A DNA stretch of 64,000 nt from Thermoanaerobaculia bacterium (GCA_036399915.1 DASWME010000013.1:1724-65723), one strand, 5' to 3'; positions 11,496-50,986 are shown, counted from the stretch's first letter. The notes: generated by a model not told the origin, from the letters alone. A program made the numbers and translations.

Positions 11496-11852
11496 TCAGG
11501 GCTTCACAACCTCAGCCCGTCGGCGCGCACGGCGACCACGCTTGCGGATGGGTCTGATGCCATAGAGCAGGAGCTTCTCCGTCCAAATCCCCAGCATGCC
11601 CTTGATGTAGCTGCGCAGACGGATGGAGGCGTCCTTCCCCTCGGCGACCGCCTCGTGGTACCGCTGGGTCGCATCCTGGGCGGAGGTGTACAGCGTGTCC
11701 CGCAGGCTGCTGAAGGCTTCCGTCCTGGCGTAGGCCTTTTCCAAAGCCTCCCGCAGCGGTGCGACGCCCGCTAGCTCGGACTCGTTCTCACGCACCGCCT
11801 GCAGCAGGCCGTACCACTCGTTGAGGAAGGGGTTCTTCGAAGATCTCGGCAT
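11496..11852 (-). CDS. Hypothetical helical protein with basic tail (paralog of 11934-12347)
   Basis: MPRSSKN...EKLLLYGIRPIRKRGRRARRR; AGGAG RBS. Confidence 0.75.
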   Translation of the reverse strand: MPRSSKNPFLNEWYGLLQAVRENESELAGVAPLREALEKAYARTEAFSSLRDTLYTSAQDATQRYHEAVAEGKDASIRLRSYIKGMLGIWTEKLLLYGIRPIRKRGRRARRRAEVVKP

Positions 11853-11892
11853 GATATTCTCCTTGTGTCGATCCGGTTCCGGAATCGGTAAA

Positions 11893-11919
11893 GGGGGGCG
11901 TGCTCTGAACACGCCCCCC
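11893..11919 (-). terminator. Putative intrinsic terminator/hairpin between the two paralogs
   Basis: GGGGGGCGTG-7nt-CACGCCCCCC stem, followed by TTTA on the - strand. Confidence 0.45.
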
Positions 11920-11933: not shown

Positions 11934-12347
11934 CTAGGCGACAGGCTTGACGGACGGGGAGGCCATGGCGCCGGAATCGGTTCCAGGGTTCTCCCCGTTC
12001 GGCTTCTTTTCCTCCTTCTTCTTGCGCGGACGCTTGCGCAGGGGCGAGACGTTGAAGTGCACGAGGAGCTCGCTCCTCGGCCCGATCTTGCCTCTCACCA
12101 CCGAGCGGATCCGGATCGCCGTCTCCTTCGCCCGGTTGACGGCGTCCTTGAGCCGCTGCGTGGCTTCCTGGCGCAGCGCGGTCAGCTCCTCCTGGCGGGC
12201 CTTGAGGCCCTGGATCTCGGCGAGCGACCCGGCCAGGGCCTGACGCTCCGTCTCCAGGATCGGCTGCACCTCGGGGTTCCTGTCGGTGGCGTCGAGCAGC
12301 CCCTTCAGGTCCTTGGTGACCACGGCGTACGAGTTGATGCTGGCCAT
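11934..12347 (-). CDS. Hypothetical helical protein with basic tail (paralog of 11496-11852)
   Basis: ...IRIRSVVRGKIGPRSELLVHFNVSPLRKRPRKKK; AAGGAG RBS. Confidence 0.8.
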   Translation of the reverse strand: MASINSYAVVTKDLKGLLDATDRNPEVQPILETERQALAGSLAEIQGLKARQEELTALRQEATQRLKDAVNRAKETAIRIRSVVRGKIGPRSELLVHFNVSPLRKRPRKKKEEKKPNGENPGTDSGAMASPSVKPVA

Positions 12348-12948: not shown

Positions 12949-13362
12949 TCAGCGGCGGCGCAGGGTCTCCTCCAGCGCCTCGCGCAGCCAGCCGTGCATC
13001 TCCAGCCGGGCCACCAGGAGCTGGGTGTCGAGGAACTCCTCGAACCTCAGGCTGAGGGCCGACGCCTGCTCCTCCGGCGTGGCCTGCTCCTCGACCAGCG
13101 GCTTGAGCGGCGGGACCGGCTCGCCGCGCGCCTGGTAGAGCGCCTGGTGGAGGTCCAGGATGTCCATCTCCAGCGCTGTGAGGATGCGCTGCAGGTTCTC
13201 CATGGTCGGGTCATGGACCCCCCTCTCGTACAGGCTGATGACCTGCGGCGTCGTCCCCGCCCGCTCGGCCAGCTCCCTCTGCGACAGGTTCGCCCGCCGC
13301 CGCAGCAGCTTCAGCGCCAGAGGCAGCCCCTGGAAGATCCTCCGCTTCTTCGCCTTGCTCAT
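12949..13362 (-). CDS. XRE-family HTH transcriptional regulator
   Basis: LKLLRRRANLSQRELAERAGTTPQVISLYERGVHDPT; ATGA overlap with the upstream gene. Confidence 0.9.
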   Translation of the reverse strand: MSKAKKRRIFQGLPLALKLLRRRANLSQRELAERAGTTPQVISLYERGVHDPTMENLQRILTALEMDILDLHQALYQARGEPVPPLKPLVEEQATPEEQASALSLRFEEFLDTQLLVARLEMHGWLREALEETLRRR

Positions 13363-13604
13363 CGCCGCTCCGCGCCCGGCCCCAGCGCCGCCGCGGCCGA
13401 GCGCAGGTCGTCGATCGCCGGCGTCACCGAGTCCACCACCACGCAGCGGAGCCGGTCGCGCAGCGCTACCGCGTCGTCCTCCGGCCCGTCCTCCCAGAGC
13501 TCGGGCAGGCCCGCGGCCGCGGCTTCCAGCCGCTCGCGGATCCCTTCCAGCTCGCGGGCCAGCTCCGTCAGCAACGCCTTGGCGGAAGCCTGGGCTTCAT
13601 TCAT
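13359..13604 (-). CDS. Small helical 'PAIDDL' protein (paralog of 44988-45218)
   Basis: LEGIRERL...LRCVVVDSVTPAIDDLRSAA; translationally coupled on both sides. Confidence 0.7.
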   Translation of the reverse strand: MNEAQASAKALLTELARELEGIRERLEAAAAGLPELWEDGPEDDAVALRDRLRCVVVDSVTPAIDDLRSAAAALGPGAERR

Positions 13605-13846
13605 CAACGGCATCCCTCCATCTCGACGGCGCCGGGGTCCCCGGGAGCCCGATCCTCCCCGGGTCCCCCGAGCGCCTCGTCCCCGAGCGCCCACAGCCTT
13701 CGTGTCATCCGCACGCATTGCGCGCAGCCGGTCAGCAGGTGGCGCACGATGACCCGCGCCTCCAGCCGGCTCGATGCGCCGCGCAGGAAGCGCGCCAGCG
13801 CCTGCGGGTCGGGATGGGCCGGCCAAGGCTCGTCGAACGCCCTCAT
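13604..13846 (-). CDS. Small zf-HC2-like (anti-sigma-type zinc finger) protein (paralog of 45215-45631)
   Basis: HPDPQALARFLRG...EARVIVRHLLTGCAQC. Confidence 0.7.
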   Translation of the reverse strand: MRAFDEPWPAHPDPQALARFLRGASSRLEARVIVRHLLTGCAQCVRMTRRLWALGDEALGGPGEDRAPGDPGAVEMEGCR

Positions 13847-14037
13847 CGGACCCGAGCCTACGAGCGGTTCTCCCTTGCCGCGATCCGCGAGCCCGCAAAT
13901 CCCCATGAGGTATGCGTCCAAGGGGATGTTTTTCCGCCCGCCGGCAACTTTCCTGTCTGCTCGCAGCGGTGTCTCAGTCACGCAACCGGTGCGCCGGGCG
14001 CTCCACTTCGATTAGACTGCGCGCAAGGAGGCGCGGC

Positions 14038-15534
14038 ATGCCCAAGTCGAGGAAGCTCTCCGCCGAAGCCCTGGCGCTCCTCTACCTGCGCTCCGAGCGC
14101 GGCTGGTCGAAAAAGGAGCTCGCCTCGCACCATGGCTATGCGGACGACAAGCAGATCTCGCGCTATGAGACCGGCGAGAAGACCCTCCACCGCGACCACC
14201 TCGAAGCCCTCGCCGCCCCTCTCGGCCACCCGCCCGAAGCCCTCGACGCCCTGGTCTTCATCCACCGCCTCATCGCGCCCGAGGACCCGCAGGAGCCCGC
14301 CTCCCCCGTTGTCGTCACCCCCGCCGAGCGCCGCCGCATCGACCGCGCCGCCCTCGCCGCCGGCTGGGCCATGGCCGACGCCGTGCGCGACGAGCTGCGC
14401 CGCCGCAAGCGCGCCGAAAAGGCCGCGGCCGACCGCCGCGAGGCCCAGGAGCTGTGGGAGCGCATGAGATCCGCCACCCGCCAGGAGCGCCGCGACCTCG
14501 TCGCCGTCTTCCCGGAGTTCCGGAGCTGGGCCCTGGCGGAGAAGGTCTGCCATGAGAGCGAGCGGGCAGCGGCCCATAGAGCCGAGGACGCCCTGGACCT
14601 GGCGGATCTCGCCCTCTTCATCGCCCGGCGGATGCCGGGGGAGGAGAGCTGGCGCTCCCGCCTGGAGGGCTACTGCTGGGCCTACACCGCCAACGCCCGC
14701 CGGGTGGCCAACGACTTCGCCAAGGCGGACAAGGCCTTCGCCCGGGCCTGGGAGTTCTGGCGGGCCGGAGCCTCCACCACTCCCGAACTGCTCGCGGAGT
14801 GGCGGCTGCTCGACCTCGAAGCCTCACTGCGGCGTGCGCAGCACCGCTTTTCCGAAGCCCTGGAATTGCTCGACCGCGCCAGAGCCGCCAGCGAAGGAGA
14901 TCCCATGGCCGCCGCGCGCATCCTGCTGAAGAAGGAGCAGGTCTTCGAGCAGATGGGGGATATTCAGGGTGCCCTAGAGGCTCTGGCGGAGTCGGCCCCA
15001 TTCATAGAGGGGTCTGGGGATAGCCGTTTACTTTTCGCTTTCCACTTTAAAACTACGAATCATCTCTGGCATCTCGAGCGCTACAAGGAGGCGGCGGACC
15101 AGCTGCCGCACGTGCGCGAGCTGGCGGAACGGCAGGGCGCCGAACTGGACCTCCTGCGGGTGGTCTGGCTGGAGGCGAAGGTGGCGGCCGGCCAGGGCCG
15201 CAAGAAGGAAGCTCTCGTGGGCCTGGAGCTGGTGCGCAGCGAGTTCACGGCCCGTGCTCTCCCCTATGACGCCGCGCTCGCCGCCCTGGATCTGGCGGTG
15301 CTCTGGCTGGAGGAGGGGCGTGCGGCGGAGGTGCGAGAGCTGGCCCTCGCCATGGCGTGGATCTTCCAGGCCCAGGGGATCGCCCGTGAGGCCCTGGCGG
15401 CGCTCGCATTGTTCCGCGACGCAGCCCTGGGGGAGACGGCCACCGTGGAGCTGGTGCGGCGAACGATCGCCGAGCTAGAGAGGGCGAGGCGCTCCGCCCC
15501 TCCCCCTCGGGACGGGCGGAGGGGCCGAGAATGA
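14038..15534 (+). CDS. XRE-HTH + TPR regulator (RRNPP-like architecture), copy 1A
   Basis: N-terminal LRSERGWSKKELA..YADDKQISRYETG; helical TPR-like body (WALAEKVC, ANARRV, LLDLEASL, LALAALDLA); AAGGAGG RBS. Confidence 0.9.
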   Translation: MPKSRKLSAEALALLYLRSERGWSKKELASHHGYADDKQISRYETGEKTLHRDHLEALAAPLGHPPEALDALVFIHRLIAPEDPQEPASPVVVTPAERRRIDRAALAAGWAMADAVRDELRRRKRAEKAAADRREAQELWERMRSATRQERRDLVAVFPEFRSWALAEKVCHESERAAAHRAEDALDLADLALFIARRMPGEESWRSRLEGYCWAYTANARRVANDFAKADKAFARAWEFWRAGASTTPELLAEWRLLDLEASLRRAQHRFSEALELLDRARAASEGDPMAAARILLKKEQVFEQMGDIQGALEALAESAPFIEGSGDSRLLFAFHFKTTNHLWHLERYKEAADQLPHVRELAERQGAELDLLRVVWLEAKVAAGQGRKKEALVGLELVRSEFTARALPYDAALAALDLAVLWLEEGRAAEVRELALAMAWIFQAQGIAREALAALALFRDAALGETATVELVRRTIAELERARRSAPPPRDGRRGRE

Positions 15535-15538
15535 AAGC

Positions 15539-15850
15539 TCACGAGCCACAGTGGGGCCTGCCGCTCGGGTCGATTTGGCAGCCTTCCTTCGCTTGGTTCG
15601 TTGACGGCGGCTGCGGGGTTGGGCTGCTGATGCAGTGGCCACTCGGGTCGATGCGGCATCCTTCCTTGGTCCAGGCGTTTGTGAGGAAGTTCCAGGCGCG
15701 GCTGAAGAGGTCCAGGGAGAGCGGCCAGGAGAGTTGGGCCGGACAGGGGTTTGCGGGCCCGGGCCGCGCGGCGGCGAAGGCCCCGGAGGCGGCGAGCAGG
15801 CCGGCGAGCAGGAGGACCACGGTGGCGCGGCGGAGCGAAGGGGTGGGCAT
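15539..15850 (-). CDS. Secreted peptide precursor with two GCxIDPSG cores (peptide P1)
   Basis: Signal peptide MPTPSLRRATVVLLLAGLLAASGAFA; cores KEGCRIDPSGHC and KEGCQIDPSGRPHC; GGGAG RBS. Confidence 0.8.
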   Translation of the reverse strand: MPTPSLRRATVVLLLAGLLAASGAFAAARPGPANPCPAQLSWPLSLDLFSRAWNFLTNAWTKEGCRIDPSGHCISSPTPQPPSTNQAKEGCQIDPSGRPHCGS

Positions 15851-15958
15851 GACGGAGCTCCCTGGAGAGCGCTCCGGCGCTGGCCCCCCATGGACCGGGC
15901 GGGCGGCTCTCCGGAAAAGGTGTACCAAACGACCATACCCTATGCGTGTTCCGGGAGG

Positions 15959-16960
15959 ATGGCGAGCATGGCCAAGAAGGGGGACCCCAACGTCCTTCGC
16001 CTCGTGGTGTCGTTCCTGCGCTCCTACACGAGGATGACGCAGACGGCATTCGCCGATGCGGCCGGGGTGGCCCAGTCCGACATCTCGCGCTACCAGGCCG
16101 GCCGGCAGACGCCGCCGGAGGAGGCGCTTCGCCGCATGGCCGCGGTGGCGGGCGTGCCCTGGCCGGTGGTGATCCACGTGCGCCGCTTCTATGCCGCGGT
16201 GCTCTCCGTGGTGGCCCGCTGGAGCGCGGTCCAGCCCGGCGGCCCTCCTCTCGACGCCGCCTCCGTGGAGCGTGCCCTGCTGGCCGTGACCCCCTATCTG
16301 CTCGCGGACGCGGCGGCGGAGCCGGAGCGACCGACGCCGGAGGCGGAGTGCCGCGAGGCCGCAGAGATCTGGGCGGACTTGGAGCGCTTCCCCCTGCCGC
16401 AGCGCCGGCGGCTGATCGAGCTATCCCTTCACGCCTCGCGGAGCTGGGCCCTGGCGGAGAGGATCTGCCATGGCAGCGAGGAGGCGGCGGCCCGTAACGC
16501 GGCAGAGGCTCTGGAGCTGGCGGACCTGGCGCTGTCCATCGCCTGGCGCGTCCCGGGGGAGGAGAGCTGGCGCTCCCGGATGGAGGGTTACTGCTGGGCC
16601 TACGTGGCCAACGCCCGCCGGGCGGACAACGACCTCGCGGGAGCGGACGAGGCGTTCGCCCGCGCCTGGGACCTCTGGCGGCGGGGAGCCGAAGCCGATC
16701 CGGGGCTGCCTCCGGAGTGGCGGCTGCTCAACCTGGAAGCCTCCCTGCGGCAGGCGCAGCACCGGTTCCCCGAAGCCCTGGAATTGCTCGACCGGGCCAA
16801 GGCGGCCAGCGAAGACGATCCGGTGGCCGCGGCGCGCATCCTGCTGAAGAAGGAGCACGTCTTCGAGTAGATGGGGAGACACCCAGAGCGCGCTCGCGGC
16901 CCTGGGAGAAGCCGGCCCCGCTCGTGGAAGCCTCAGGGGATTCCCCACCTGCCGTCACTC
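15959..16960 (+). pseudogene. XRE-HTH + TPR regulator copy 1B, truncated
   Basis: Colinear with 1A at offset 1918; CAG->TAG at 16868-16870; homology continues out of frame (APLVEASGDS) to about 16950, then is replaced by lower-GC DNA. Confidence 0.8.
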
Positions 16961-17173
16961 TGCGGATCTTGCGTAGCACAACGTTCTCTGATATCCTTCA
17001 ATAAATTCTCTGTTAGTGCTAGGAACCCACGATCCGCCTCAGCAGCAATCCAGGTATCAGGCCAAGATTCTGACTCACGGTTGTATCGTAGGATCCTCAT
17101 CTTCAGCCCAGAAGAAAGAGAAAGAAGTATGGTTGTGAGAACCCCGTTTCAATTTGCACAGCACATCGCGCCG

Positions 17174-19177
17174 ATGTTCAGCCGGCTTGCGGCGGCCACA
17201 GTCTTGATCCTCCTCGTCGCTTCGGCCCCTGCTCTCGCTCAGGAGAAGGGGAGGGGACCTCGCCCCTTGCCGCCCGAGCAGCTCCATGCCGACGCAAGCG
17301 CGCTCGGCTTGACTCCCGAGGTCGCGGCTCTCATCGCCGACACGCCGTTGATGCGGGACCTCCCCGGCCCTGAGGACACCGCCGAGGTCATCCGCCGCTA
17401 TCTGCGCAAGGGCAATTACGAAAAGTTGTCGCCTGAGCGGTACACCGCGCTGATGGAGGACACCGTGCGCCGCTGGCCCGAAAGCCGCCTCGCGCACGAG
17501 GGGCTGGCCCAAGCCCTCCTTGGCGGCCATGGCGACCCATCGCCGGAGGCGCTGCAGCGCGCCGCCAAGGAGTACCTGGCCGCGGCGGAGATCGGGTTCA
17601 GCCACGGCGAGGTGCACTACGAGATGGTGATCGCGGATGTCCTGGGGAGGACCGGAGACAAAGCTGCCCTCGACGACTACTTCGCCAAGGTCTTCTCCTT
17701 GATCGGCGACGAGAAGGAACGTTACGGTGCGTATCTCTCTTATGCCCAAGCCCTCTCAAGGCTCGGCGACCGCCGCGCCGAGGAGTACTTCCTCAAGGCG
17801 ATCGACGTGAGCCCCGGAGGATTGGATCCTTACGAGCTGTATGCAGTTTATCTGCTCGAAACCGGCCAGCCGCGGAAGGTGTTGGATCTGTTGAGCCCTC
17901 AGGTTCTCGAGTCGGCCGTCTCCACCCGCGATTTCTTCCGCGGCCTGCGCTGCCGCGCGTTAAAGCAGCTGGGCCATGACCCAAAGCAGGAGGCTGACTG
18001 CCAGGTCACGTCACGGCCTGTCCCGCCGTCGGTGGGAGGTGCCGGCTCGGTCCCTTTTGTCTTTGAAGCCGCTGAGGGTCAGAAAGGGGACGGATCCCTT
18101 GAGAGTATCTTCGGCAAGGCACACATCAACAATGCGGATGACTGCCGGTATAACACCAGCCCTGGCTGCGCCTACCACCCGGCTGATCCGAACTTCTACA
18201 AGATCTGTTACAATTTTCTTACCTGGAACCTTGCTGAGATAATCGAGAACGAGGCCTTTACCGAGGCACCAGGATCCCGCGTCGCGGTGGCTTGGACGGT
18301 GCGCGATCGCGTACTCCGTAGCAAGAATCCGGGTGGCAGTCTACCCGCCTGCGGGGGCTTCCCGGGAGGCGGCGGCACCTGCACCTCGGCATGCCCGGCT
18401 CCCAACCTGCCGGAAACCTGTGACATCCAGAAGCGCTACTGCTGCGTTATCCATTCTGGAAGCTTCGTGGACACCCACCGGTCTGTCACCTTTCAGAACA
18501 TCGACTTTGCCTACAGGGTCATTGAGGGCGGGCTCCCGGACCCGGTCTCGGGTTACCTTCCGCAAGGCGCCGGCTGTTCTCTCAACAGTTGCGACGGGAC
18601 CGTCTACTGCAATACCTGGGGCGGTGAGTTGGACTTTGCGCCTGAAGGCCCCATTTTCTTTTACGGCAACCGAGCCACCAGCTACCGCTGCCTGGGATAC
18701 CAGCCCCTCGTCTCCACCGCCTGCAGCATCGTCGCCGGCGAAACCTGCGGCGACTCGGCCGATGGCTCGGGGAGCGACAACTGCTACGGCCGTGCTACGA
18801 GACAGCGGCCCTGGGACGGCACCCAGCTTGCGTGCGGTGCAGGTTGCACGAGCAATGGCTCGATCAAGCGCCTGATCAGTGGTGCAAACCTTTTCAAGAC
18901 ACCAACTGAGACTCCGAAATTCAAGGACCCGGGAGGGAAAGCCTTCCTCCTCGAAGCTGCGCTCGAAAGCGGAACGGGAGCTTCCGTCCGCGTGCAGCTT
19001 CTCAACTCTGCCGGAGCGCTGCTCCATGATTTCGGCACCCTGACCGTCGGCTCGACCACCTACACGAGCTACGAATTCAAGTCCTCAATCGTGATCCTGG
19101 GACCAGGGAGCACGGTGAAGGTCATCAACAACGGACCTTCCGTCATCCTGGTCCGAAAAGTCACGGCCCACGACTAG
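17174..19177 (+). CDS. Secreted TPR + SleB/Hydrolase_2-like Cys-rich protein
   Basis: Signal peptide MFSRLAAATVLILLVASAPALA; TPR-like helices; LAEIIENEAF..RVAVAWTVRDRV resembles the Hydrolase_2 motif; alternative start 17129. Confidence 0.75.
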   Translation: MFSRLAAATVLILLVASAPALAQEKGRGPRPLPPEQLHADASALGLTPEVAALIADTPLMRDLPGPEDTAEVIRRYLRKGNYEKLSPERYTALMEDTVRRWPESRLAHEGLAQALLGGHGDPSPEALQRAAKEYLAAAEIGFSHGEVHYEMVIADVLGRTGDKAALDDYFAKVFSLIGDEKERYGAYLSYAQALSRLGDRRAEEYFLKAIDVSPGGLDPYELYAVYLLETGQPRKVLDLLSPQVLESAVSTRDFFRGLRCRALKQLGHDPKQEADCQVTSRPVPPSVGGAGSVPFVFEAAEGQKGDGSLESIFGKAHINNADDCRYNTSPGCAYHPADPNFYKICYNFLTWNLAEIIENEAFTEAPGSRVAVAWTVRDRVLRSKNPGGSLPACGGFPGGGGTCTSACPAPNLPETCDIQKRYCCVIHSGSFVDTHRSVTFQNIDFAYRVIEGGLPDPVSGYLPQGAGCSLNSCDGTVYCNTWGGELDFAPEGPIFFYGNRATSYRCLGYQPLVSTACSIVAGETCGDSADGSGSDNCYGRATRQRPWDGTQLACGAGCTSNGSIKRLISGANLFKTPTETPKFKDPGGKAFLLEAALESGTGASVRVQLLNSAGALLHDFGTLTVGSTTYTSYEFKSSIVILGPGSTVKVINNGPSVILVRKVTAHD

Positions 19178-19315: not shown

Positions 19316-20049
19316 CTACGAGTTTCTCCAAACCATGGTGATGCCTTCGCAAAGAGAACTGGGCAGGAACCGGTAGGCAGCGTTCTTCAGAGACCCCAGG
19401 ATCACCTGTCGTCCTACGGTCTCACCGGATTCCCCATGCGCGAATCTTGCGTCGAAGTAAAATGACATCGTGCATTCCTCGATCCGAAATCCTACCTCTG
19501 AAGCTAACTCGAGGAGCTCTTTTCGCGTGTACTCCCGGAATGGCCAGGGTTCTGCCGATCCACCCGGATCATCTCGAACGGGTTCCGTCCGAGAAGCAGC
19601 TTCAATCTTTTGGGCAAGGAGGCGGCGTTGGGAATTTGTAGGACAATACACCCATCGTCAACCAACAACGCTCGAACGAAACTTAGCGCAAACTGAGGCG
19701 CCGTGTAAAGATGGTCGAGAACTTCGGCCATCACCACAAAGTCATATCTGGGGAGATCCCGGCGCCAGGTCTCCGTCCGCTGGGTGAGGTTCAGGTCAAA
19801 CCCGAAGTGCCTGCCTTCGGGCGTCACTCGATCCTCTCCGAATCCCAGCGAATCGACTGCGATGCCAAACCGCTCGTGGATCAGCGCCGTCAACCGTGAC
19901 GGACCGATATCCAAGAGCGTCGAACCGGGTCCAACACCGTACCTGTCCAGGATCTCCAGCAGGTACGCGTAGCGGGGCGCGTGATAGGCGACGTAACCTT
20001 GATCCTCGCCATGGATGGCGGCCGCTGAGGGACCTCGCGCCTTTCGCAT
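19316..20049 (-). pseudogene. Class I SAM methyltransferase split by a 1-bp frameshift
   Basis: LLDIGP, DFVVMAEVLDHL, IPNAAS..NPGH in one frame, FREYTRKELL in another; CAT-TTC lost one T near 19540. Confidence 0.75.
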
Positions 20050-21425: not shown

Positions 21426-21447
21426 GCGGCCTTTGGCATGCGTGGCC

Positions 21448-21676
21448 TGACCTGCAGGGCAAGCCGCGTGCCCTTCAGGTCAAAGAGCCTGCCCTTCGGG
21501 TCAAGCGGCGTGCCCTTCAGGTCAAGGCCCTGACCTGCAGGTCAAGCCGCCTGCCCTTCAGGTCAAAGGGCCTGCCCTTCAGGTCAAGCGGCGCGCCCTT
21601 CAGGTCACGCCCATGACCTGCGGGTCAAGCCGCGTGACCTTCAGGTCAAAAGGCCTGACCTTCAGGTCAAGAGGCC
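21448..21676. repeat. Tandem array of 11 units (21 bp; units 4 and 8 are 20 bp) with TG(A/C)CC-N4-GGTCA core
   Basis: Units read directly, e.g. TGACCTGCAGGTCAAGCCGCC; 83-bp higher-order period. Confidence 0.95.
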
Positions 21677-21810
21677 TAGGGTCTGAAGAAGATTTGAGCC
21701 TGCCAGGGCCTGCAATGGCTCTTTGCGGAGAAGGATGGGCATTCCCCTTTCTCTATTCACAATGCACCCCTCTCTGGCTATACTTTCGGGCCAGATCGGC
21801 AGCGCTTGCG

Positions 21811-34368: not shown

Positions 34369-36957
34369 TTACGGATAGATCCCCCGCGACACCCGCGCCT
34401 TGAGCCCCCGCTTCACCCGCACCTCGACCGGCCGGAACCCATTGGGGTCCGCCGGTCGGTCGGAGCTGTAGGCCAGGAAATAGCGGCTGCGCAGCTCCTC
34501 GCTGATGCGGCCGTAGACGCCCGCCAGCTCCTCGGCGCGGTCGATGAAGAAGGCCCGGCCGCCGGTCGCCTCCGCCAGCTCGGCGAGCTTGCTCCTGGCA
34601 CCGAGCTTCAGCTCGGAGAGGCCGAGCCCGATCGTATAGATGGCGACGCCGCTCCGGCGGGCGTAGGAGAGCGCGTCCTCCCAGGAGGTGCTGCTGAAGG
34701 TGTCGTCGCCGTCGGTCAGCAGCACCAGGGCGCGCTGCCCCCGCTCGGCGCGGAAGTAGTAGAGGGCGGTGATGACGGCGTCGTAGAGCGCCGTGCGGCC
34801 GAACGCCCGCAGGCCCTCCAGCGACAGGCTCACCGCCTCGGCGTCGTCCACCGGCGGTATCAGGAGCACAGGGCGGGAGGAGAAGCCGAGAGTGAAGCAG
34901 CGGTCCTTCGGGGTGAGCAGGTTGTGCACGAAGCCGGCGGCGGCCCGCTCGGCCTCGGCCAGCGAAGATGCCATCGAGAAGGAGGTGTCGATGGCGATCC
35001 CCAGCGACAGCGGCAGGTCCACCTGCTCGAAGCGGACGATCTTCTGCGGCCTGCCGGCCTCGAGCACCTCGAAGTCCGACGCCGGGAGTCCCCGCACCGG
35101 GTGGCCGGAGGAGTCGAGGACCGTGGCGAAGAGCTCCACCAGGTCCACCTCGACCTCGCCCAGGTTGGCCGGCGCGCGCAGGAAGCGCACGTCCTCGGCC
35201 TGGCTGCCGTCGTCGAGCCGCGCCATGACGGTGAGATAGGCGAGGTCCCCTGCGGACGGCACCTCGATCTCCCGCTGCCAGGGGGGGTCGGCGAGGGTGG
35301 CGACCGTGCGGTCGTTGACGCGGAACTCGACGCTCTCGACCCGCCGCTCCTCGGGCACCACCACCTCGGCCCGCGCCAGGACCTTGCCCGCCGCGCGGCG
35401 GCCCCGCGGCGGATCGGTGATCAGCACCCGCAGCCGGCCGCGCGCCTGGTTGAGCACCACCTGGTCCCAGGCCACCAGGCCGCCTTCGGCGTCGTAGCCC
35501 TCGACGCGCACCACCTGCTCGTGGGGGACCTCGGCCAGCCGCAGCTCGGCCGAGTAGGGCGGCCGGGTGCGCGAAAGCTGGGGCTGGCCGTCCACCAGGA
35601 AGGCCACTCTGGCGATGCGGCGGCCCGAGACCACCGCCTCGGCCCGCCAGACGCCGAGCACCACTTCGGAGGGGGGCGGTACCAGCAGCAGCGTGTCGGG
35701 CCCGGTGACGCCGCCCGGCCGCACCGTCTCGCCGCCCAGGGCCCTGGCCGTCAGCTCGGGGGAGATGTGCCGCTCCGGCCGCTCCGGGACACGGAAGCCG
35801 CGGACGACGGCGGTCTCGGCGCCGCTGGTCTCGTCCCTGACCCGCAGCCGCAGCACGAAGCTCTGTCCCGGGCGGAGCGCCCGCTCCAGCAGCAGGGCGG
35901 CGGGCGCGCCAGGCGCTGGCGGCGGCACCTGGTAGCGCACCCGGAAGTCTTCGAAGACGGCGTCTCCACGCTCGACGACGCCGTCGACGGTGAGGCGCAC
36001 CCGCTGCCGGCCGCCCCCGGTGTCCGCGGCCGCCATGCCGGCGGCGGACGGCAGGCTCAACAGCGCGCGGGCGAGGAGGCGCTGGCCCTGGCGGGAGGGG
36101 AAGTCGAGGTCCAGCCCGCCCAGCTCCAGGGGCTCCGGCGCGGGCGGCAGCGGCGTCGCCGCCGCCTCGCGGGCCCAGGCGGCGAGGCCGGGGGGACCCC
36201 ACAGCAGCGCGATCCGGTTCTCCGGACGCACCCAGCGGAAGTCGCGGGCCGCCTCCGCCGGGCGGTCGCTGGCGCCGTAGGTGGCGGCGCTCAAGTCCTG
36301 CGTCGTGCCGTCTCCCAGTCCGTCGATCCCGGTGACGCGGTCCACCCGCTTGGAATCGGGGCAGAAGAAGCGGTCGAGGCGCTTGCCGGGCAGGCGCGCC
36401 AGGTCCGCCTGGAGGAGCCAGAACTCCATCTCGCTGGTGTAGAGGGCGCGCTTCGAGTCGATGGGCAGCCAGAGCCGGAACGGCTCGTCCGAGGAAGGGC
36501 GGTAGAGGATCAGCTCCTTCGCGGCGCCGTCCACGGTTGGATAGGACCAGATCTCCAGCGGCTTGAAGGCGGCGGCGCAGTCCACCACCCGCCGCTCCGC
36601 CGGCCGGCCGCGCAGGAAGACGAGCTGGGCCCGCGCGTCGCGCGGCGAGGGGAACTCGCCGGCCACGAGGCGCCGGCGGCGCTCGATCCCCTGGCGCAGC
36701 TCGTTGCCGGGCGTTTCGGGGATTGGATCCCGGTCGAGGAATTCGCGGATGAACCGCTCGCGCCCGGCTTCGTCCAGGGCCGCCAGCGCCTGGCGCTGCT
36801 CGGGCGGGAGCAGCAGCCCCGGACCGTCCTGGAAGAACGCCCGCTGCGGCTCGGGCCAGAGGGTGGGGTCGGAGGGAGAGGGCGATTGGGCGAGGGCGGG
36901 GAGGGCGAGGAGGAGAAGGGAGAGGCCGATCCGGCCGGGGGAGTGAGGGCCCCTCAC
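34369..36957 (-). CDS. Exported VWA-domain protein (GWxTD-like N-domain, Ig-like modules), paralog 1
   Basis: RDP.PETPGNE..R, LEIWSY; MIDAS DTSFSM / T / LLTDGDD. Confidence 0.85.
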   Translation of the reverse strand: MRGPHSPGRIGLSLLLLALPALAQSPSPSDPTLWPEPQRAFFQDGPGLLLPPEQRQALAALDEAGRERFIREFLDRDPIPETPGNELRQGIERRRRLVAGEFPSPRDARAQLVFLRGRPAERRVVDCAAAFKPLEIWSYPTVDGAAKELILYRPSSDEPFRLWLPIDSKRALYTSEMEFWLLQADLARLPGKRLDRFFCPDSKRVDRVTGIDGLGDGTTQDLSAATYGASDRPAEAARDFRWVRPENRIALLWGPPGLAAWAREAAATPLPPAPEPLELGGLDLDFPSRQGQRLLARALLSLPSAAGMAAADTGGGRQRVRLTVDGVVERGDAVFEDFRVRYQVPPPAPGAPAALLLERALRPGQSFVLRLRVRDETSGAETAVVRGFRVPERPERHISPELTARALGGETVRPGGVTGPDTLLLVPPPSEVVLGVWRAEAVVSGRRIARVAFLVDGQPQLSRTRPPYSAELRLAEVPHEQVVRVEGYDAEGGLVAWDQVVLNQARGRLRVLITDPPRGRRAAGKVLARAEVVVPEERRVESVEFRVNDRTVATLADPPWQREIEVPSAGDLAYLTVMARLDDGSQAEDVRFLRAPANLGEVEVDLVELFATVLDSSGHPVRGLPASDFEVLEAGRPQKIVRFEQVDLPLSLGIAIDTSFSMASSLAEAERAAAGFVHNLLTPKDRCFTLGFSSRPVLLIPPVDDAEAVSLSLEGLRAFGRTALYDAVITALYYFRAERGQRALVLLTDGDDTFSSTSWEDALSYARRSGVAIYTIGLGLSELKLGARSKLAELAEATGGRAFFIDRAEELAGVYGRISEELRSRYFLAYSSDRPADPNGFRPVEVRVKRGLKARVSRGIYP

Positions 36958-39506
36958 GGGTAATACCCCCGCGCCGTCCGCGCCTTGAGGCCTCCCTTCT
37001 TGAGCTTGACGTCTACCGTACGGAACCCGCCCTGGCCGCCGATCTCGGTGGAGTTGTAGGCCACCAGGTAGCGGCTGCGCAGCTCGTTCTCGATCTGCTT
37101 ATAGATGCCCGGCAGCTCCTCGGCGTTGTGGGTGAAGAAGACCCGGCCGCCGGTAGCCTTGGCGAACTCCTCGAGCTTGGCGTGGACCGCGGCCTCGAAC
37201 GGCGGCAGGTTGAGACCGATGGCGTAGATGGCGACCCCGCTCCTGCGAGCGTACTCCAGGGCGTCCTTGTAGTTGATGTTGCTCGCGTTGTCGTCGCCGT
37301 CCGAGAGCAGCACCAGGGCCCGTTGACCCTGGACGCCGCGGAAGTAGTAGAGGCTGTGCACCAGGGCGTCATGCAGCGCCGTATCGCCCACGGCCTGGAG
37401 CCCTTCGATGGCCTGCACCACGGCGCCCACGTCGTCCGTGGGCGGCATCTCCAGCCGCGGCCGGCGGGCGAAGCTCACGGCGAAGGCCTTGTCGCGCGGC
37501 GTCAGGACGCCCTCCAGGAACCCGGCGGCGGCCTTCTGCGTGTCCACCATGGAGCCGGCCATGGACCCCGAGGTGTCGATCAGCACGCCGACGACCAGCG
37601 GCAGGTTCTGCACCAGCTCGAACTTGGCGATCTCCTGCGGCTTGCCCGACTCGTAGACCTCGAAGTCCTCCTGCTTCAAGTCGCGCACGAGGTTGCCGGA
37701 GCGGTCCGTCACCGCCACGTACAGCTCCACCAGGTTGACGTCCACCTCCGACACGTACTGCGGCGACTTCAGGTAGCGCACGGCCTCGGCCCGGGTGCCG
37801 TCGTCCAGGGTGGCCAGCACCGTGAGGTAGACGAGGTCGGCGTCGGCCGGCACGGAGACCTCGGCCTGCCACGGCGGCTTGGTGAGGGAAGCCACCGCAC
37901 GGTCGTTGACGCGGAACTCCAACGACTGGATGCGCCGGCCGTCGGGCACCACCACCTCGGCGCGGGCCAGGGTGCGCCCCTGGACCTTGACGCCCTTGCC
38001 CGGCGAGACGATGCGCACGTTGAAGGCGCCGCGCGGCTGGTTGAGGATCACCTCGTCGGCGGCCACCAGCTTGCCCTCGGCGTCGTACCCCTGGGCACGG
38101 ACGGTCTGCTCGGTGGGGAAGCGCTCCAGCCGCACCTCGACCGCGAAGGGGCGCCTGGCGACGGTGAGCTGGGGCTTGCCGTCCACCAGGAACGTCACCT
38201 TCTGAATGCGCTCGCCGGTCACGATCGCCTCGGTACGCCAGAGCCCCACCAGGATGTCCTCGGCCGGCGGCAGCAGGATCAGGCTGTCCGGGCCGGCCAC
38301 GGTTGAGACCGGCACCAGCTCGCCCGAGGCGGCGTTGGCGGGCCTGGGCTCGGGCGTCGGCTCCGACGGCACCCGGAAGCCCCGCGAGATCCTCGCTTCG
38401 CCGCCGCCCACCTCGTCATGGACCTTGAGCCGCATCACGTAGTTCGACTTCGGGCGCAACGGCCGGTCGATGGCCAGCACGACCGGCTCCCCCGGCTTCG
38501 GGACGGGGTGCTGGAAGCGCATCCTGAAGTCTTCGAGCGGCTGGCCTTCCTGCTCCACCAGCCCCTCGACGATCAGGCGGATCCCCGGCTTGCCCTCCTG
38601 GACTGTCTTGAACCCGGCATCCGCCGGCAGGGTGACCAGGGCGCGGGTCACCAGGCGCTGGCCCTCGCGGTCGGGGAAGCGGAGCTCCGCCGAGGCGACC
38701 TTGAGGTCCGGCGACGGCGAGGGCAGCTCGGTGGCCGCGGCTTCGCGCGCCCAGCGGGCGAGGTCGGCCGGCGGCGCCAGCAACGGGGAAGCGTCCTTCG
38801 GCCGGACCCGCACGCCTCTGCCCGCGTGGGCCCCGGTCAGTCCGGGAACGCCGGTGGCCTGGTCGACGGTCTTCGCCTCCTTGCAGTTCTGGAGGTCGAA
38901 GCGCACGGCGCGGAACGTCTTGCCATGCTGCTCCTCCCACTGCTCGAGCCAGTACTCCATGAGCGGCGTGTAGAGCGCCCGCTTCGAGTCGCTGGGCAGC
39001 CAGAGGCGGTAGGGCTCCCCCTTGCCGGGCGTGTAGACCACGGCCTGCCGCTGCAGCGGCTTGCCGTCCGGGCCGATCCCGCCGCCGCGGTAGGTCCAGA
39101 CCTCCAGCGGCTTGAAGACCGCGCCGCAGTCCACCACCCGCCGGTCCTCGGGCATCCCGTTCAGGAACAGGAGCTGGGCCCGCACGTCCCGCGGCGAGAG
39201 GAACTGGTCCTCGGCCAGCCGCTGGCGGCGCGCGACGCCTTCGCGCAGCTCGTTGGCCTTGGTCTCGGGGACCGGGTCGCGGTCCAGGAACTCCCGGATC
39301 CAGCGGGCCCGCGCCTCGGGGTTGAAGCTGCGCAGGTCGGTGCGCTGCTCCGGCGTGAGGAGCAATCCGGGGCCGTCCTGGAGGAAGGCCCGCTCCGGCT
39401 CGGGCCAGAGGGTCGGATCGTTCTCCTGCAGGCCCTCGGCCCCCAGGGGCGCGAACGGGAGAAGGATGAAAAGGAGGAGGAAGAACAGCGGGATCCGGTA
39501 TCTCAC
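36954..39506 (-). CDS. Exported VWA-domain protein (GWxTD-like N-domain, Ig-like modules), paralog 2
   Basis: Colinear with paralog 1; DTSGSM, TALHD, LLSDGDD. Confidence 0.85.
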   Translation of the reverse strand: MRYRIPLFFLLLFILLPFAPLGAEGLQENDPTLWPEPERAFLQDGPGLLLTPEQRTDLRSFNPEARARWIREFLDRDPVPETKANELREGVARRQRLAEDQFLSPRDVRAQLLFLNGMPEDRRVVDCGAVFKPLEVWTYRGGGIGPDGKPLQRQAVVYTPGKGEPYRLWLPSDSKRALYTPLMEYWLEQWEEQHGKTFRAVRFDLQNCKEAKTVDQATGVPGLTGAHAGRGVRVRPKDASPLLAPPADLARWAREAAATELPSPSPDLKVASAELRFPDREGQRLVTRALVTLPADAGFKTVQEGKPGIRLIVEGLVEQEGQPLEDFRMRFQHPVPKPGEPVVLAIDRPLRPKSNYVMRLKVHDEVGGGEARISRGFRVPSEPTPEPRPANAASGELVPVSTVAGPDSLILLPPAEDILVGLWRTEAIVTGERIQKVTFLVDGKPQLTVARRPFAVEVRLERFPTEQTVRAQGYDAEGKLVAADEVILNQPRGAFNVRIVSPGKGVKVQGRTLARAEVVVPDGRRIQSLEFRVNDRAVASLTKPPWQAEVSVPADADLVYLTVLATLDDGTRAEAVRYLKSPQYVSEVDVNLVELYVAVTDRSGNLVRDLKQEDFEVYESGKPQEIAKFELVQNLPLVVGVLIDTSGSMAGSMVDTQKAAAGFLEGVLTPRDKAFAVSFARRPRLEMPPTDDVGAVVQAIEGLQAVGDTALHDALVHSLYYFRGVQGQRALVLLSDGDDNASNINYKDALEYARRSGVAIYAIGLNLPPFEAAVHAKLEEFAKATGGRVFFTHNAEELPGIYKQIENELRSRYLVAYNSTEIGGQGGFRTVDVKLKKGGLKARTARGYYP

Positions 39507-39603
39507 GCGCGGCCTCGATGCACGCCCGGTGCCACTCCATCACCCCATCCGAACGACCGGGTTGGCACGGTTTCGCGGAAAGACTACTATGGGCGGGTTC
39601 GCC

Positions 39604-41698: not shown

Positions 41699-43270
<1,572 letters not shown>

Positions 43271-43275
43271 AGCGT

Positions 43276-43830
43276 CCGCCGGCGCAACGACAAGGCCTGC
43301 CCGCGCAGTCGGTGGATCCGCCGGCGCGGCGAGGACGTCCGCCGGCGCCGCGACACCTCCCGCCTGCAGCTCGACGAGGCCCGCCCGCGTAGCTGGTTCA
43401 TCCGCCTGCGCAGTTGGTCGAACCGCCCGCGTCTCGACAAATCCCGCCTGCAGCTCGACAAGGCCCGCCGGCGCGGCGAGAGCGTCCGCCCGCGTCTCGA
43501 CAAGGCCCGCCTGCCTGGCCGGTTGATCCGCCCGCAGCTCGACGAGGCCCGCCTGCGCAGTTGGTTGACCCGCCGCTGCAGGCGGGAGGACAAATTGCTC
43601 AGGCGGTAGGCCCGCCTGCTCAGGCGGCTGAGCAAATGACCCAGGCGGAAGGCCCGCTTGCCCAGGCGGGAGGACAAATTACTCAGGCGGCTGAGCAAGT
43701 TACGCAGGCGGGAGGACAAACTGCGCAGGCGGGAGAACAAATTGCGCCGGCGGTTGGCCAAATTCCTCGGGCGGACGAGCCAGCTGCGCAGGCGGGAGAA
43801 GAAATTGCGCCGGCGGTAGGCCCGCCGGCG
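43276..43830. repeat. Bipartite 21-bp array: 15 CCGCCNG-core units then 12 inverted CNGGCGG-core units
   Basis: Cores fall exactly every 21 nt (43276...43570; 43579...43810); the two cores are reverse complements. Confidence 0.92.
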
Positions 43831-43881: not shown

Positions 43882-44991
43882 TCAGGCGAAAGGCACCGGG
43901 CTCACGCGGACGCCCTGCAGCCGGAACGCCCGCCGCAGTTCCGGGGCCAGGAAGCTCCACTGACGGCGGTCCAGCCGCCCGGCCGCGGCGTCCTCCGCAT
44001 AGATCGCCAACGCGCCCAGCGCCAGGTCGAGGCCCGGCCGGCCCGCGAAGCGCGTGGCCAACTCCTCCACAGGGGCGCTCAACTCCCCGCCTCTCCCCAG
44101 CTCCCTCAGCACGAGCCCCAGATCGATCGTCGCCAGAGTGGTTTCGGGAAGCAGGCGCCGCGCGATCAGCTTGCGCCGCACCGCCTCCAGCAGGGGCTCG
44201 GCCGCCGCGACCTCGCCCGCGCCTGCAGCCACCCGGCCCTCCATCCAATACAGGGCGAACAGCGCCTTCTCATGGCGCACCCCTCCGTAGAGCCTCCAAG
44301 CGCTCTCGCGGGCCTGCCTCGCCTTCGCGGCCTCGCCGGCTGCCGCGAAGCAGAGCGCCAGGCCCAGGCCGCTGCGCACGGCCAGCCAGGCCTCCCCCGC
44401 GCGCTCCAGCGCCCGCCAGGCCCGCCGCAGCAGCGGCGCCGCCCACCCCGTCTCGCCCTCCTCCACATACAGCAGGCCGAGCAGCGCCCGGCACGCCTCC
44501 TCCTCCTTGCCATTCTGCGCCTGGCCAAAGAGCTGCAAGCCGTGGTGCAGCAGCGCGGCGGCTTCCGCGGTGCGCCCCTGGTCCCAGCGCAGCAGGCCCA
44601 GGGCGCGGCAGAACCGCCCGCGGCCCGCGGCTTCGAGCGTAAGGTACTGCGCCCGCTCCAGAAGGGCTTCCGCGGTTTCGACGTGGCCCATCAGCCGGCG
44701 CGCCGTGGCCGTCAGGCACAAAGCGCGCGCCAGGCCCTCGCTCTTGGCCGCGGGCGCGAGCCTGCCGCGTGTGCCCAGCCGCACGCAGAGCTCCGCCCCC
44801 AGGGTCGCCAGCTCGTTGGCCCGCCGCGGCGCGAACGGCAGCGCGGCCTGCGCTTCCTCCAGCACCAGCTCGTAGAGCTCCAGGCTGTGAAAGCGCTCCT
44901 CCTTTACGCGCTCCATCCGCTCCTCCCCGGCACCCGCCATGAGCTCGCCGAGCAGGCGCACCGTCTGTGGCTTCGATTTGGGAGGGCTCAT
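43882..44991 (-). CDS. TPR-like protein without HTH (related to 20262-21425)
   Basis: LTATARRLMG, LGLLRWDQG, LYWMEGRVAA, LATIDLGL; ATGA-coupled to the upstream gene. Confidence 0.8.
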   Translation of the reverse strand: MSPPKSKPQTVRLLGELMAGAGEERMERVKEERFHSLELYELVLEEAQAALPFAPRRANELATLGAELCVRLGTRGRLAPAAKSEGLARALCLTATARRLMGHVETAEALLERAQYLTLEAAGRGRFCRALGLLRWDQGRTAEAAALLHHGLQLFGQAQNGKEEEACRALLGLLYVEEGETGWAAPLLRRAWRALERAGEAWLAVRSGLGLALCFAAAGEAAKARQARESAWRLYGGVRHEKALFALYWMEGRVAAGAGEVAAAEPLLEAVRRKLIARRLLPETTLATIDLGLVLRELGRGGELSAPVEELATRFAGRPGLDLALGALAIYAEDAAAGRLDRRQWSFLAPELRRAFRLQGVRVSPVPFA

Positions 44992-45631: not shown

Positions 45632-45806
45632 GTTCCGCGCGATTGTGGCGGCTCGGCGGGACCGTCAAGACATCACTTAGGAGATTGGCGAACCTTTGAA
45701 TACAATACGCGGGTAGCGCCCGGGAGTGTCGCCTCCGCCGTGTCACGTCCCACACGCCGGAGGCACCGAGGTACTGTGGAGCCCTTCCTTCCATGGAGAT
45801 CGTTGC

Positions 45807-47507: not shown

Positions 47508-47623
47508 GGGATCATCTCCTGCGCGGCGCCCGGCCGCGGCCGCCATGGCTCGCGCGGGCCGCGCCCGTAATCTTAGGTGTGGGGCCGGCGAAAATTCGCC
47601 AATTTCCTAAGTGGGGGGATCGG

Positions 47624-50977: not shown

Positions 50978-50986
50978 GGGTTGGCG

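Follow-up and report, generated by a model that had tools for sequence, protein, structure and literature searches.

Two matching gene cassettes in the window

The DNA analysed is a stretch of 64,000 nt, called the window, from a Thermoanaerobaculia bacterium (GCA_036399915.1 DASWME010000013.1:1724-65723); all positions are counted within it unless another locus is named. The window hosts two copies of a gene cassette, locus 1 (12949-16960) and locus 2 (43882-49051), with matching gene order and orientation (Table 1). In each, a set of small genes named ZF, PAI and X is divergent from a gene, A, encoding a regulator made of an XRE-type helix-turn-helix (HTH) and a tetratricopeptide repeat (TPR) domain. 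A is convergent with pep, which encodes a candidate peptide precursor, and pep is followed by B, a second HTH-TPR gene. Two such loci some 30 kb apart had been noticed in an earlier reading of the same DNA, referred to as the original prediction, and are confirmed by coordinates, sequence identities and cross-locus tblastn comparisons. A1 retrieves A2 with an E-value of 2.5e-66, and the values for ZF, PAI and pep are 6.6e-13, 2.9e-10 and 4.4e-10, respectively; the paired products are 42% (A1/A2), 53% (ZF), 45% (PAI) and 47% (pep) identical. Chance or artefact as the origin of the likeness was ruled out by these E-values and by the 43 related loci described below.

XRE-type HTH and TPR domains are recognized by Pfam in A and B, with HTH_3, HTH_19 and HTH_31 matches distributed across A1, B1, A2 and B2 and with TPR_12, TPR_16 and TPR_MalT among the TPR matches; XRE1 has HTH alone, and TPR2 gives a weak TPR signal. 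Among the window proteins pep, ZF and PAI have no Pfam match, and NCBIfam adds none. In the six-frame translation of the window the motif C-x-x-D-P-x-G occurs twice in pep1 and twice in pep2, and the one other match falls in a frame interrupted by a stop codon. The G+C content, about 0.70-0.72, falls to 0.58-0.63 past locus 1 and to 0.62-0.66 past locus 2, so that the lower-GC DNA reported after the cassette is found at both places.

Table 1. Cassette genes, related genes and intergenic elements identified in the window
Feature	Position	Strand	Locus	Description
XRE1	12949-13362	-	1	HTH-only paralogue, 137 aa; Pfam HTH_3, E 1.8e-14
PAI1	13359-13613	-	1	small helical protein, 84 aa
ZF1	13604-13843	-	1	about 79 aa; opens the leftward operon
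A1	14038-15534	+	1	HTH-TPR regulator, 498 aa; Pfam HTH_19, HTH_3, TPR_MalT, TPR_12
pep1	15539-15850	-	1	103-aa precursor; convergent with A1, 4 nt between stop codons
pep1 leader hairpin	15882-15896	-	1	in presumed 5' leader; loop AUGGG, 36 nt upstream of start codon
pep1/B1 block	15911-15944	+	1	shared candidate promoter/operator block, GGAAAAGGTG-N8-GACCATACCCTATG; holds symmetric TAnnnTA
B1	15968-16870, remnants to ~16950	+	1	HTH-TPR pseudogene; Pfam HTH_31, E 1e-8
C3	20187-21425	+		distant TPR-only paralogue beyond the locus 1 cargo
TPR2	43882-44991	-	2	TPR-only paralogue, 369 aa; start overlaps PAI2 stop
PAI2	44988-45218	-	2	76 aa; start overlaps ZF2 stop
ZF2	45215-45631	-	2	ORF of 138 aa; 114 aa as called in public protein collection
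A2	45807-47279	+	2	HTH-TPR regulator, 490 aa; Pfam TPR_12, E 4.8e-12, and HTH matches
pep2	47274-47507	-	2	about 77 aa (90 aa from upstream in-frame ATG); 6-nt overlap with A2 stop
pep2 leader hairpin	~47534-47557	-	2	counterpart of the pep1 hairpin
B2	47624-49051	+	2	second HTH-TPR regulator, intact

Distribution and linkage of the cassette

A pattern scan of one genome per species, in all 185,579 species, identified 43 cassette loci in 24 assemblies, up to 4 per genome. All are from metagenome-assembled genomes of Acidobacteriota, belonging to Thermoanaerobaculia, to unclassified Acidobacteriota and, in one instance, to Holophagales. The order ZF/PAI, rightward A, leftward pep and rightward B recurs in the related loci, as determined by tblastn and by motif and open reading frame (ORF) analyses. 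The association of a peptide gene with HTH-TPR genes across genomes, anticipated by the original prediction, is borne out. pep lies beside A in 38 of the 39 loci having DNA downstream of A (the exception is L011), and a hidden Markov model (HMM) of pep matched 45 of 8905 ORFs in 769 kb, each match adjoining a member of the family. pep-like ORFs escaping the cysteine-based motif were found between A and B in L026, L027, L029, L033, L034, L037, L038 and L042, and second or third pep copies were revealed by the HMM in L026, L028, L039 and L040. The reverse route led to the same genes, as the contigs encoding the P0150, P0048 and P0003 peptides carry an identical set of neighbours. Locus L028 (393-5300 of that locus) is a tandem array A-pep-B-pep-B'-pep of three regulator/peptide units, which identifies the HTH-TPR gene with its convergent pep as the repeating unit.

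Only three protein clusters, the HTH-TPR family, ZF/PAI and pep, are common to more than 12 loci. The cassette forms a regulatory module of its own, so far encountered in no phylum but Acidobacteriota and chiefly in the class Thermoanaerobaculia. Its indispensable core is formed by ZF-PAI divergent from A and by A convergent with pep; B is often added, divergent from pep, and is placed outside the core because it is often shortened and its 266-aa forms evolve almost neutrally. Across loci the convergent stop codons of A and pep range from a 6-nt overlap to a gap of about 20 nt. In the two window loci and most of the others these codons overlap or are separated by no more than 6 nt, a minority having the wider gap, and the 3' ends of the two transcripts must overlap in either case. 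Several cassettes, differing in peptide unit type (CGIDP, C[RNHQ]IDP, CSADP, CGMDP, PGLDP), are present in each genome.

A word-index protein search gave 9 matches for pep1 and 4 for ZF2, all named "hypothetical", and the size of the pep family emerged from a profile search; at 50% identity and E <= 1e-3 it returned 1603 representatives, of which the best 150 are all 83-169 aa long. The family of A comprises at least 1231 clusters at 90% identity, all carrying generic names. Neither Pfam nor NCBIfam has a model for pep, ZF-PAI or the cassette, and no description of them was found in the literature searched, which agrees with the suggestion that the module family is undescribed.

The pep precursor

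In all 40 precursors compared, the N-terminus is first basic and then hydrophobic, and is predicted by sequence inspection to be signal-like. A variable spacer, a leader [FL]-x-x-[LI]-W and one to four units come next. The unit consensus is [K/D]-x-G-[C/P/G/A]-x-[I/L/M/A]-D-P-x-G, with G-x-x-I-D-P-x-G as short core. In pep1 the leader ends with LFSRAWNFLTNAW and is followed by the units KEGCRIDPSGHC and KEGCQIDPSGRPHC, the second located 2 residues from the C-terminus; the units of pep2 are KEGCGMDPSGHC and EAGCGMDPDGRPC, and the last is 1 residue from the C-terminus. In the 101 units of the 40 precursors, G at position 3 and P at position 8 are invariant, and G at position 10 (100 units) and D at position 7 (97 units) nearly so. 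Position 1 is K in 57 units, D in 28 and E in 11; position 4 is C in 83, P in 8, G in 6 and A in 4; position 6 is I in 50, L in 23, A in 12 and M in 8. Positions 2, 5 and 9 are variable, and units of the Cys type extend by x-C. Linkers between units are 2-30 residues long, variable and rich in Pro, Ser, Thr and Ala, and the final unit is 0-6 residues before the stop codon.

The peptide had been described by the motif GCxxDPxG, of which the DPxG portion is confirmed and the cysteine is not essential. Some precursors are Cys-free, with all units switched to KEGPGLDPSG (L027, L029, L033, L034), KAGAIADPDG (L026) or KNGGSLDPDG (L037, L042). In these, Pro, Gly or Ala replaces the first Cys in each unit and the second is missing, the type changing throughout the precursor. 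Judging from these variants the cysteines are dispensable and, since they are lost across whole precursors, what is conserved is a short linear, turn-rich motif rather than a disulfide-stabilised domain.

For the invariant Gly, Pro and Asp all synonymous options are used at third codon positions, and the ratio of nonsynonymous to synonymous substitutions (dN/dS) is 0.17-0.47 in pep; the frame on the minus strand is thus protein-coding and subject to selection. ORFs antisense to pep, such as 15531-16037 (+), were ruled out, the minus frame being the one that accounts for the signal-like N-terminus, for the motif and for the synonymous variation.

The near-invariant G, D-P and G, the variable linkers and the C-terminal location of the last unit fit a multi-copy peptide precursor. 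Phr precursors with duplicated cores and yeast alpha-factor, a eukaryotic pro-hormone, similarly combine a signal peptide, a leader and tandem near-identical units separated by variable linkers. pep differs from these in that it shows no recognised protease sites; the residue preceding each unit is K, D or E. It also differs from the precursors of ribosomally synthesised and post-translationally modified peptides, as no enzyme gene is conserved next to it.

Regulators A and B and single-domain paralogues

A1 consists of a five-helix XRE-type HTH (residues 9-79), a linker helix of 50 residues and a TPR-like superhelix that reaches residue 486. Inspection of the A sequence shows neither a signal peptide nor a transmembrane segment. 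In the AlphaFold2 model, obtained from a 46-sequence alignment (pLDDT 90, pTM 0.76), the superhelix includes about 16 helices. When compared with the PDB by Foldseek, the model best matches peptide-binding TPR domains, those of LGN/Pins and of Rap proteins (E about 1e-5 to 1e-4, target-normalised TM-scores 0.52-0.71); RapJ-PhrC ranks third, followed by RapI, RapF, RapH and the Rap protein of phage phi3T. A helix with the sequence Y-x-W-A-x-x-A-N-A-R-R-V-A-N-D is conserved in the TPR domain. dN/dS values of 0.22-0.24 were obtained for A.

A and B were compared by domain in the six loci in which both paralogues are intact, taking the last 345 residues as TPR. In all six the TPR domains of A and B are mutual best matches, 77-98% identical, and the HTHs are 19-29% identical. 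In the clade-2 loci L024, L026, L028 and L033, gene 1 best matches A2 and gene 2 B2 over the full length, HTH included (tblastn). It follows that in these the A/B split predates the loci and that the TPR domains have been homogenised within each, a pattern which suggests a concerted evolution keeping one sensor specificity per locus. The TPR of B2 is 89-91% identical to that of A2, and the HTHs of the two are unrelated. The converted tract spans 46209-47276 and 47981-49048, and identity at the DNA level is 88% between 46209-46508 and 47981-48280.

B1, listed in the original prediction as an HTH-TPR gene, is a decayed and truncated pseudogene. After 302 intact codons, a TAG (16868-16870) is found in place of a Gln codon following KKEHVFE. 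Beyond it, two frameshifted stretches, GDTQSALAALGEAGP and then APLVEASGDS, match A1, until homology ends at about 16950, where low-GC DNA starts. B is shortened or decaying (120-316 aa) in more than 20 loci. Of its short forms, those of 125 aa are under moderate constraint (dN/dS 0.27-0.49), and those of 266 aa are nearly neutral (0.65-1.08).

Single-domain relatives of A are XRE1, 35% identical to the N-terminal 124 aa of A1, TPR2, 30-31% identical to the TPR of A1 and A2, and C3, 28-32% identical to the TPR of A1, A2 and B2. The true start of C3 is probably downstream of the listed ATG. C3 was also considered as the lost 3' half of B1, but is a distinct TPR-only paralogue with a promoter block of its own.

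Shared intergenic elements and the pep leader

The region between pep and B is conserved over very divergent loci. In clade 1 it holds a block with the consensus GGAAAAGGTG-N8-GACCATA[AC]CCTATG, and its symmetric core TAnnnTA could serve as a -10 element in both directions. The region between ZF and A has the related CCAT[AG]nnnTATG, with GGTnCACCTTTTCC downstream on the A side; the same GGTnCACCTTTTCC is found downstream of the symmetric -10-like core on the pep side. A and pep thus share a leader/operator element, and are probably co-regulated. In clade 2 a GAAAnTTTC palindrome is found in both intergenic regions instead. A block of about 34 bp, GGAAAAGGTG-N8-GACCATANCCTATG, precedes both B1 and C3 (20156-20189), and CCATANCCTATG occurs 2 times in the window versus 0.12 expected. 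Scanning with the leader motif at 2 mismatches gave 815 matches and was uninformative, only the exact or longer block being specific. DNA to the left of the C3 copy has a weak similarity to the 5' region of pep, and may be the remnant of a third cassette.

A hairpin with the loop A[U/G/C]GG[A/G] may form in the presumed 5' leader of pep; 28 of 32 loci have it, at a distance of 32-39 nt from the start codon. In 26 curated loci, with the register chosen by maximising pairing, stem covariation is 0.374 versus 0.194 in shuffled controls (0 of 500 shuffles reach the observed value) and 0.07-0.16 in slid controls, although a co-evolving palindromic operator could mimic this signal. G.U pairs fall on the pep-sense strand. 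An AGGGAG-type Shine-Dalgarno sequence follows the hairpin; CsrA-type regulators bind this kind of pattern, a GGA in a hairpin loop combined with another at the Shine-Dalgarno sequence. The window, the pep leader hairpin included, has no match to any Rfam family.

The ZF-PAI unit

The stop and start codons of ZF, PAI and X overlap (the XRE1 start overlaps the PAI1 stop by 4 nt), and the three genes thus form an operon. ZF and PAI had been considered separate genes. Both are present, but they make a single fused ORF in L002, L005, L033 and in protein P0279; overlaps and fused forms indicate that they are two parts of one unit. By tblastn, 31 of the 43 loci have ZF and/or PAI in divergent orientation to A. 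The gene following PAI varies. The expected XRE or TPR gene is found in the window as an HTH-only paralogue of A in locus 1 and a TPR-only one in locus 2, and TPR-only paralogues occupy this place in 9 related loci (tblastn). In five loci (L011, L013, L016, L024, L032) it encodes a Type ISP/MmeI-like methyltransferase-specificity protein of about 800 aa, whose C-terminal specificity domain is of Type ISP (PF18135, E 2.5e-61) and which weakly matches MmeI methyltransferase, and in 2 loci a PAS histidine kinase; no co-oriented gene is found in the remaining ones.

PAI, which resembles a helical hairpin, ends with the motif C-V-[VL]-x-D-x-[VI]-x-P-A-I-x-D-L and is strongly constrained (dN/dS 0.09 for L019 versus L020). 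The ZF motif H-P-x3-L-x2-F-x-R-G-x-L...V-R-H-L-L-x-G-C-x2-C resembles the pattern of zinc-binding anti-sigma domains (zf-HC2: ChrR, RsrA, RsiW). Like these, ZF is a short N-terminal helical domain with a His...His-x-n-Cys-x2-Cys arrangement and a preceding L-x2-[FY]-x2-G-x-L helix; it has one extra residue, the spacing being H-x4-C-x2-C versus H-x3-C-x2-C. Three ZF relatives have matches to zf-HC2 (PF13490) below the family cutoff (best E 0.026, 15.1 bits versus 22.2). The model of the fused P0279 (pLDDT 79) has ChrR (probability 0.63) and RsiW as top Foldseek matches, at non-significant E-values of 1.4-5.4.

One may accordingly imagine an anti-sigma-like switch, in which ZF-PAI would sequester A and B through a sigma-region-4-like HTH until a redox or zinc signal is received, pep being incidental. 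The zinc-binding pattern, the weak zf-HC2 matches, the ChrR and RsiW fold matches, the recurrent location of ZF-PAI opposite to A, the constraint on PAI and a weak Sigma70_r4 match of the A2 HTH (E 0.0018) are in line with it, but all the similarity scores are below significance and the spacing of the metal-binding residues deviates. Moreover, ZF is fused or coupled to another type of C-terminal helical domain, no ECF (extracytoplasmic function) sigma factor gene is adjacent to it, and no sigma factor gene of any sort was found in the window cassettes or among the protein clusters common to related loci. The equally conserved pep would be left unexplained. As an account of the whole cassette the switch is improbable; it may be a component of the peptide circuit discussed below.

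Genomic context

The genes beyond B are unrelated among loci, and the flanks consist mostly of ordinary housekeeping or sensor-kinase genes. Locus 2 resides within a segment of about 9 kb bracketed by a degenerate duplicate of the 3' end of a malate synthase gene (41699-43270). A second copy of the last ~110 nt of the gene, of the stop codon and of ~13 nt beyond it, 84% identical, lies about 9 kb downstream; the copies map at ~43150-43283 and ~52205-52345, and have a stop codon each. The segment looks like an insertion at the malate synthase 3' end. It contains 21-nt tandem arrays, locus 2, RHS C-terminal fragments, a small membrane ORF and two HTH genes, and no integrase was seen in it. The first RHS fragment (49103-50977), 52 nt past B2, is N-terminally truncated and ends with a serum-amyloid-A-like tip (PF00277, E 3.3e-23). 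It is followed by a 53-aa membrane ORF (50981-51142) and by a second fragment (~51223-51311), an 83% repeat of 49820-49908. With RHS repeats, core, variable tip, small membrane ORF and second fragment, the region resembles orphan RHS C-terminal toxins, and may be viewed as an orphan toxin/immunity-like array; it is outside the conserved cassette, and such fragments are absent beside related loci. Just to the right of the insertion, a ParE-family toxin gene (53095-53391, +; PF05016, E 6.5e-14) is overlapped by an upstream antitoxin-like ORF ending at 53108.

Locus 1 is followed by a low-GC gene; this cargo (17129-19177) has just weak TPR or HEAT-like matches in Pfam and PDB sequence searches. 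Between it and the C3 block lies the sole tRNA gene of the window, tRNA-Arg(CCT) (19778-19851, +). A tRNA-linked island as general context of the cassette was ruled out, since a tRNA gene is near only 3 of 40 related loci. An origin from phages, as for arbitrium systems, was similarly ruled out, since no relatives were found in the 2.9 million viral contigs searched; neither the shared protein clusters nor the Pfam matches of the flanks include a recognisable phage gene.

These surroundings bear on the control of antagonistic cargo assigned to the cassette by the original prediction, according to which the module would switch mobile or island-borne genes (RHS toxins, lytic enzymes, restriction systems) through the operons on the B and ZF sides. 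The RHS fragment with its serum-amyloid-A-like tip next to B2, and the ParE gene beside the island, speak for it, as do the duplicated malate synthase end around locus 2 and the low-GC DNA and tRNA gene after locus 1. Against it, more than 20 loci have a truncated B, of which the 266-aa forms are almost neutral. No integrase was seen in the 9-kb insertion, the cassette has no relatives on viral contigs, tRNA genes are near few related loci, and the cargo of locus 1 has no recognisable function and interrupts the decayed B1. The Type ISP/MmeI-like protein follows ZF-PAI in 5 related loci; apart from this, flanks are unrelated, mostly chromosomal, and share nothing besides the three cassette clusters. 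The RHS and low-GC genes are part of local insertions, and the cargo link is local to the window rather than a property of the cassette, as flanks differ from locus to locus. The proposal is thus not retained, and as a general explanation is very unlikely.

Other features of the window are worth mentioning. Tandem arrays with a 21-nt period are found at 21444-21677 (11 copies) and at 43288-43574 and 43578-43826 (about 25 copies). Their unit sequences differ, each array is directly 3' of a TPR-only paralogue (C3 and TPR2), and no convincing protein is encoded in any reading frame. As 21 nt correspond to two helical turns, the arrays may be iteron-like binding sites. To the left of locus 1, two adjacent genes (11496-11912 and 11934-12347, both -) encode paralogous helical proteins of 137-138 aa with a basic C-terminal tail; these have no Pfam match, and a homologue is found to the right of the cassette in L007 (13079-13462 of that locus). 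Two large paralogous neighbours, 34369-37098 (-) and 36954-39539 (-), encode proteins of ~910 and 862 aa and are 70-85% identical in blocks at the DNA level; the repeat families D6-D9 and D12 correspond to these blocks.

A possible peptide-signalling circuit

The propeptides of RRNPP systems are exported by Sec or PptAB and matured to 5-10 residues, usually from the C-terminal part, and the peptides are re-imported by an oligopeptide permease. The systems taken for comparison are Rap-Phr, NprR-NprX, PlcR-PapR, Rgg-SHP, PrgX-PrgQ and AimR-AimP. Their signature at the gene level is a TPR receptor of 250-500 aa with a propeptide-like ORF, featuring a signal-like N-terminus, within -60 to +400 bp (PMC10075063). 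Validated propeptides are 21-50 aa long, the default range of RRNPP_detector being 10-100 aa, and intragenic repeats of the peptide unit are known in Phr (PMC10075063). TPR-sensed peptide pheromones are seen as a distinguishing trait of Bacillota and of the mobile elements of these bacteria, and diderms are thought to rely on small-molecule autoinducers (PMC10075063). A literature search for RRNPP combined with Acidobacteria, diderm or Thermoanaerobaculia returned nothing relevant.

The cassette shares with these systems a TPR-type cytoplasmic receptor, here of 490-498 aa, which carries an N-terminal XRE-type HTH as PlcR, NprR, Rgg, PrgX and AimR do, and Rap does not; the fold of the A1 model is Rap-like. 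It also shares a small adjacent ORF with a signal-like N-terminus and a short C-terminal motif and, in parallel to Bacillus Rap-Phr, the presence of several paralogous pairs in one genome. The divergent arrangement of pep and B recalls rgg/shp, and the overlap of receptor and peptide transcripts recalls prgX/prgQ. On the other hand, no sequence homology is detectable, and the host belongs to a diderm phylum, Acidobacteriota. The precursors are longer (71-135 aa), and feature a conserved Trp-containing leader, one to four tandem units and, usually, a Cys pair. Two receptors with homogenised sensors and differing HTHs are present at each locus, and a ZF-PAI operon lies alongside. In contrast to AimR-AimP, the cassette has no relatives among the viral contigs searched. 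The RRNPP-like character assigned to it by the original prediction is thus maintained for the gene-level signature and the TPR fold, and not for homology to RRNPP receptors.

Linkage, gene signature, precursor architecture, receptor fold, one sensor specificity per locus and several cassette types per genome are the grounds for likening the cassette to an RRNPP peptide-signalling circuit, to which it would be analogous without being a member by homology. The proposal is tentative, and we rate its chances as somewhat short of even. The pep product would be exported via Sec through the signal-like N-terminal segment, and would be cut in the periplasm or outside the cell to give one to four short peptides built on G-x-x-[I/L/M/A]-D-P-x-G, closed in most variants by a Cys-Cys bridge. 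The released peptides would re-enter the cell and be bound by A and, where intact, by B, in the concave groove of the superhelix formed by the TPR domain. The XRE-type HTHs of A and B would then alter transcription at the bidirectional promoters between ZF and A and between pep and B, and other copies of the promoter block, such as that upstream of C3, may also respond. One signal would in this way be linked, through A and B, to two DNA-binding specificities, with the anti-sigma-like ZF-PAI, the HTH-only XRE1 and the TPR-only TPR2 as plausible modulators.

Several observations weigh against such a circuit. Genes for a peptidase, an exporter or an oligopeptide permease are missing in the cassette, and none is conserved nearby; in a diderm, moreover, the peptide must also cross the outer membrane twice. 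The likeness in fold is generic to TPR superhelices, as the eukaryotic LGN outranks Rap. In PDB sequence searches only the HTH of A finds relatives (PlcR, E 0.22), and no cassette protein matches RRNPP-specific Pfam or NCBIfam families. About half of the precursors exceed the 100-aa default of RRNPP_detector, and unlike units are common in one precursor, as CNIDPDGRC, CGIDPDGRC and CHIDPNGRC in L007. The locus has been recovered only from DNA sequencing runs. Allelic peptide/receptor pairs had also been proposed. Peptide unit types do track receptor clades, but in a partial Mantel test, which is crude and not phylogeny-aware, peptide distance is not correlated to TPR distance when HTH distance is controlled for (r = 0.05, p = 0.28), and it follows HTH distance slightly better than TPR distance.

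Part of this evidence would equally suit an alternative, in which A and B are ordinary XRE-TPR regulators and pep is their main target, secreted and never returning. The TPR domains would sense a small molecule or a protein partner (ZF-PAI, which as an anti-sigma-like protein is a candidate for this role, or the TPR-only paralogues), and pep might be an antimicrobial, a protease inhibitor-like nine-residue disulfide loop, a metal- or Ca-binding or a surface-active peptide. Linkage and shared promoters are expected here just as well, and a cassette devoid of uptake and processing genes, with no TPR-specific covariation with the peptide, raises no difficulty. The leader hairpin and the elements close to the Shine-Dalgarno sequence suggest an elaborate control of pep output, and homogenised TPR domains could equally serve the hetero-oligomerisation of A and B. 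A disulfide-loop function is nonetheless contradicted by the loss of both cysteines in whole clades; a linear motif of 8-10 residues, variable in copy number and C-terminal, is typical of released peptides, and several orthogonal cassette types in one genome are harder to fit with a single effector function. This alternative is the chief rival of the circuit, though it seems unlikely rather than likely.

Returning to the RRNPP-like circuit, its fullest version would be a cell-cell signalling native to diderms and independent of the Firmicute systems. Sec-exported precursors would release several D-P-x-G copies with an optional disulfide, two cytoplasmic receptors with gene-converted sensors and differing DNA-binding domains would respond, ZF-PAI and half-receptors would act as modulators, and several orthogonal channels would operate in each soil Thermoanaerobaculia genome. 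In so complete a form the proposal is doubtful.

The cassette is not rare, with more than 1600 pep representatives (50% identity) and more than 1200 receptor clusters (90% identity), and is found in multiple copies and under selection in abundant, barely cultivated soil Acidobacteriota. Even if pep is not a ligand, three unannotated families (pep, ZF and PAI) remain for annotation, together with a clear example of paralogous regulators evolving in concert in one domain only and a set of conserved cis-elements. If the peptide circuit is real, TPR-sensed peptide communication would extend to a new phylum and to a new type of cell envelope, and the D-P-x-G peptides of 8-10 residues and their receptors would provide defined candidate ligands and partners, which may be tested in vitro without culturing the organisms.

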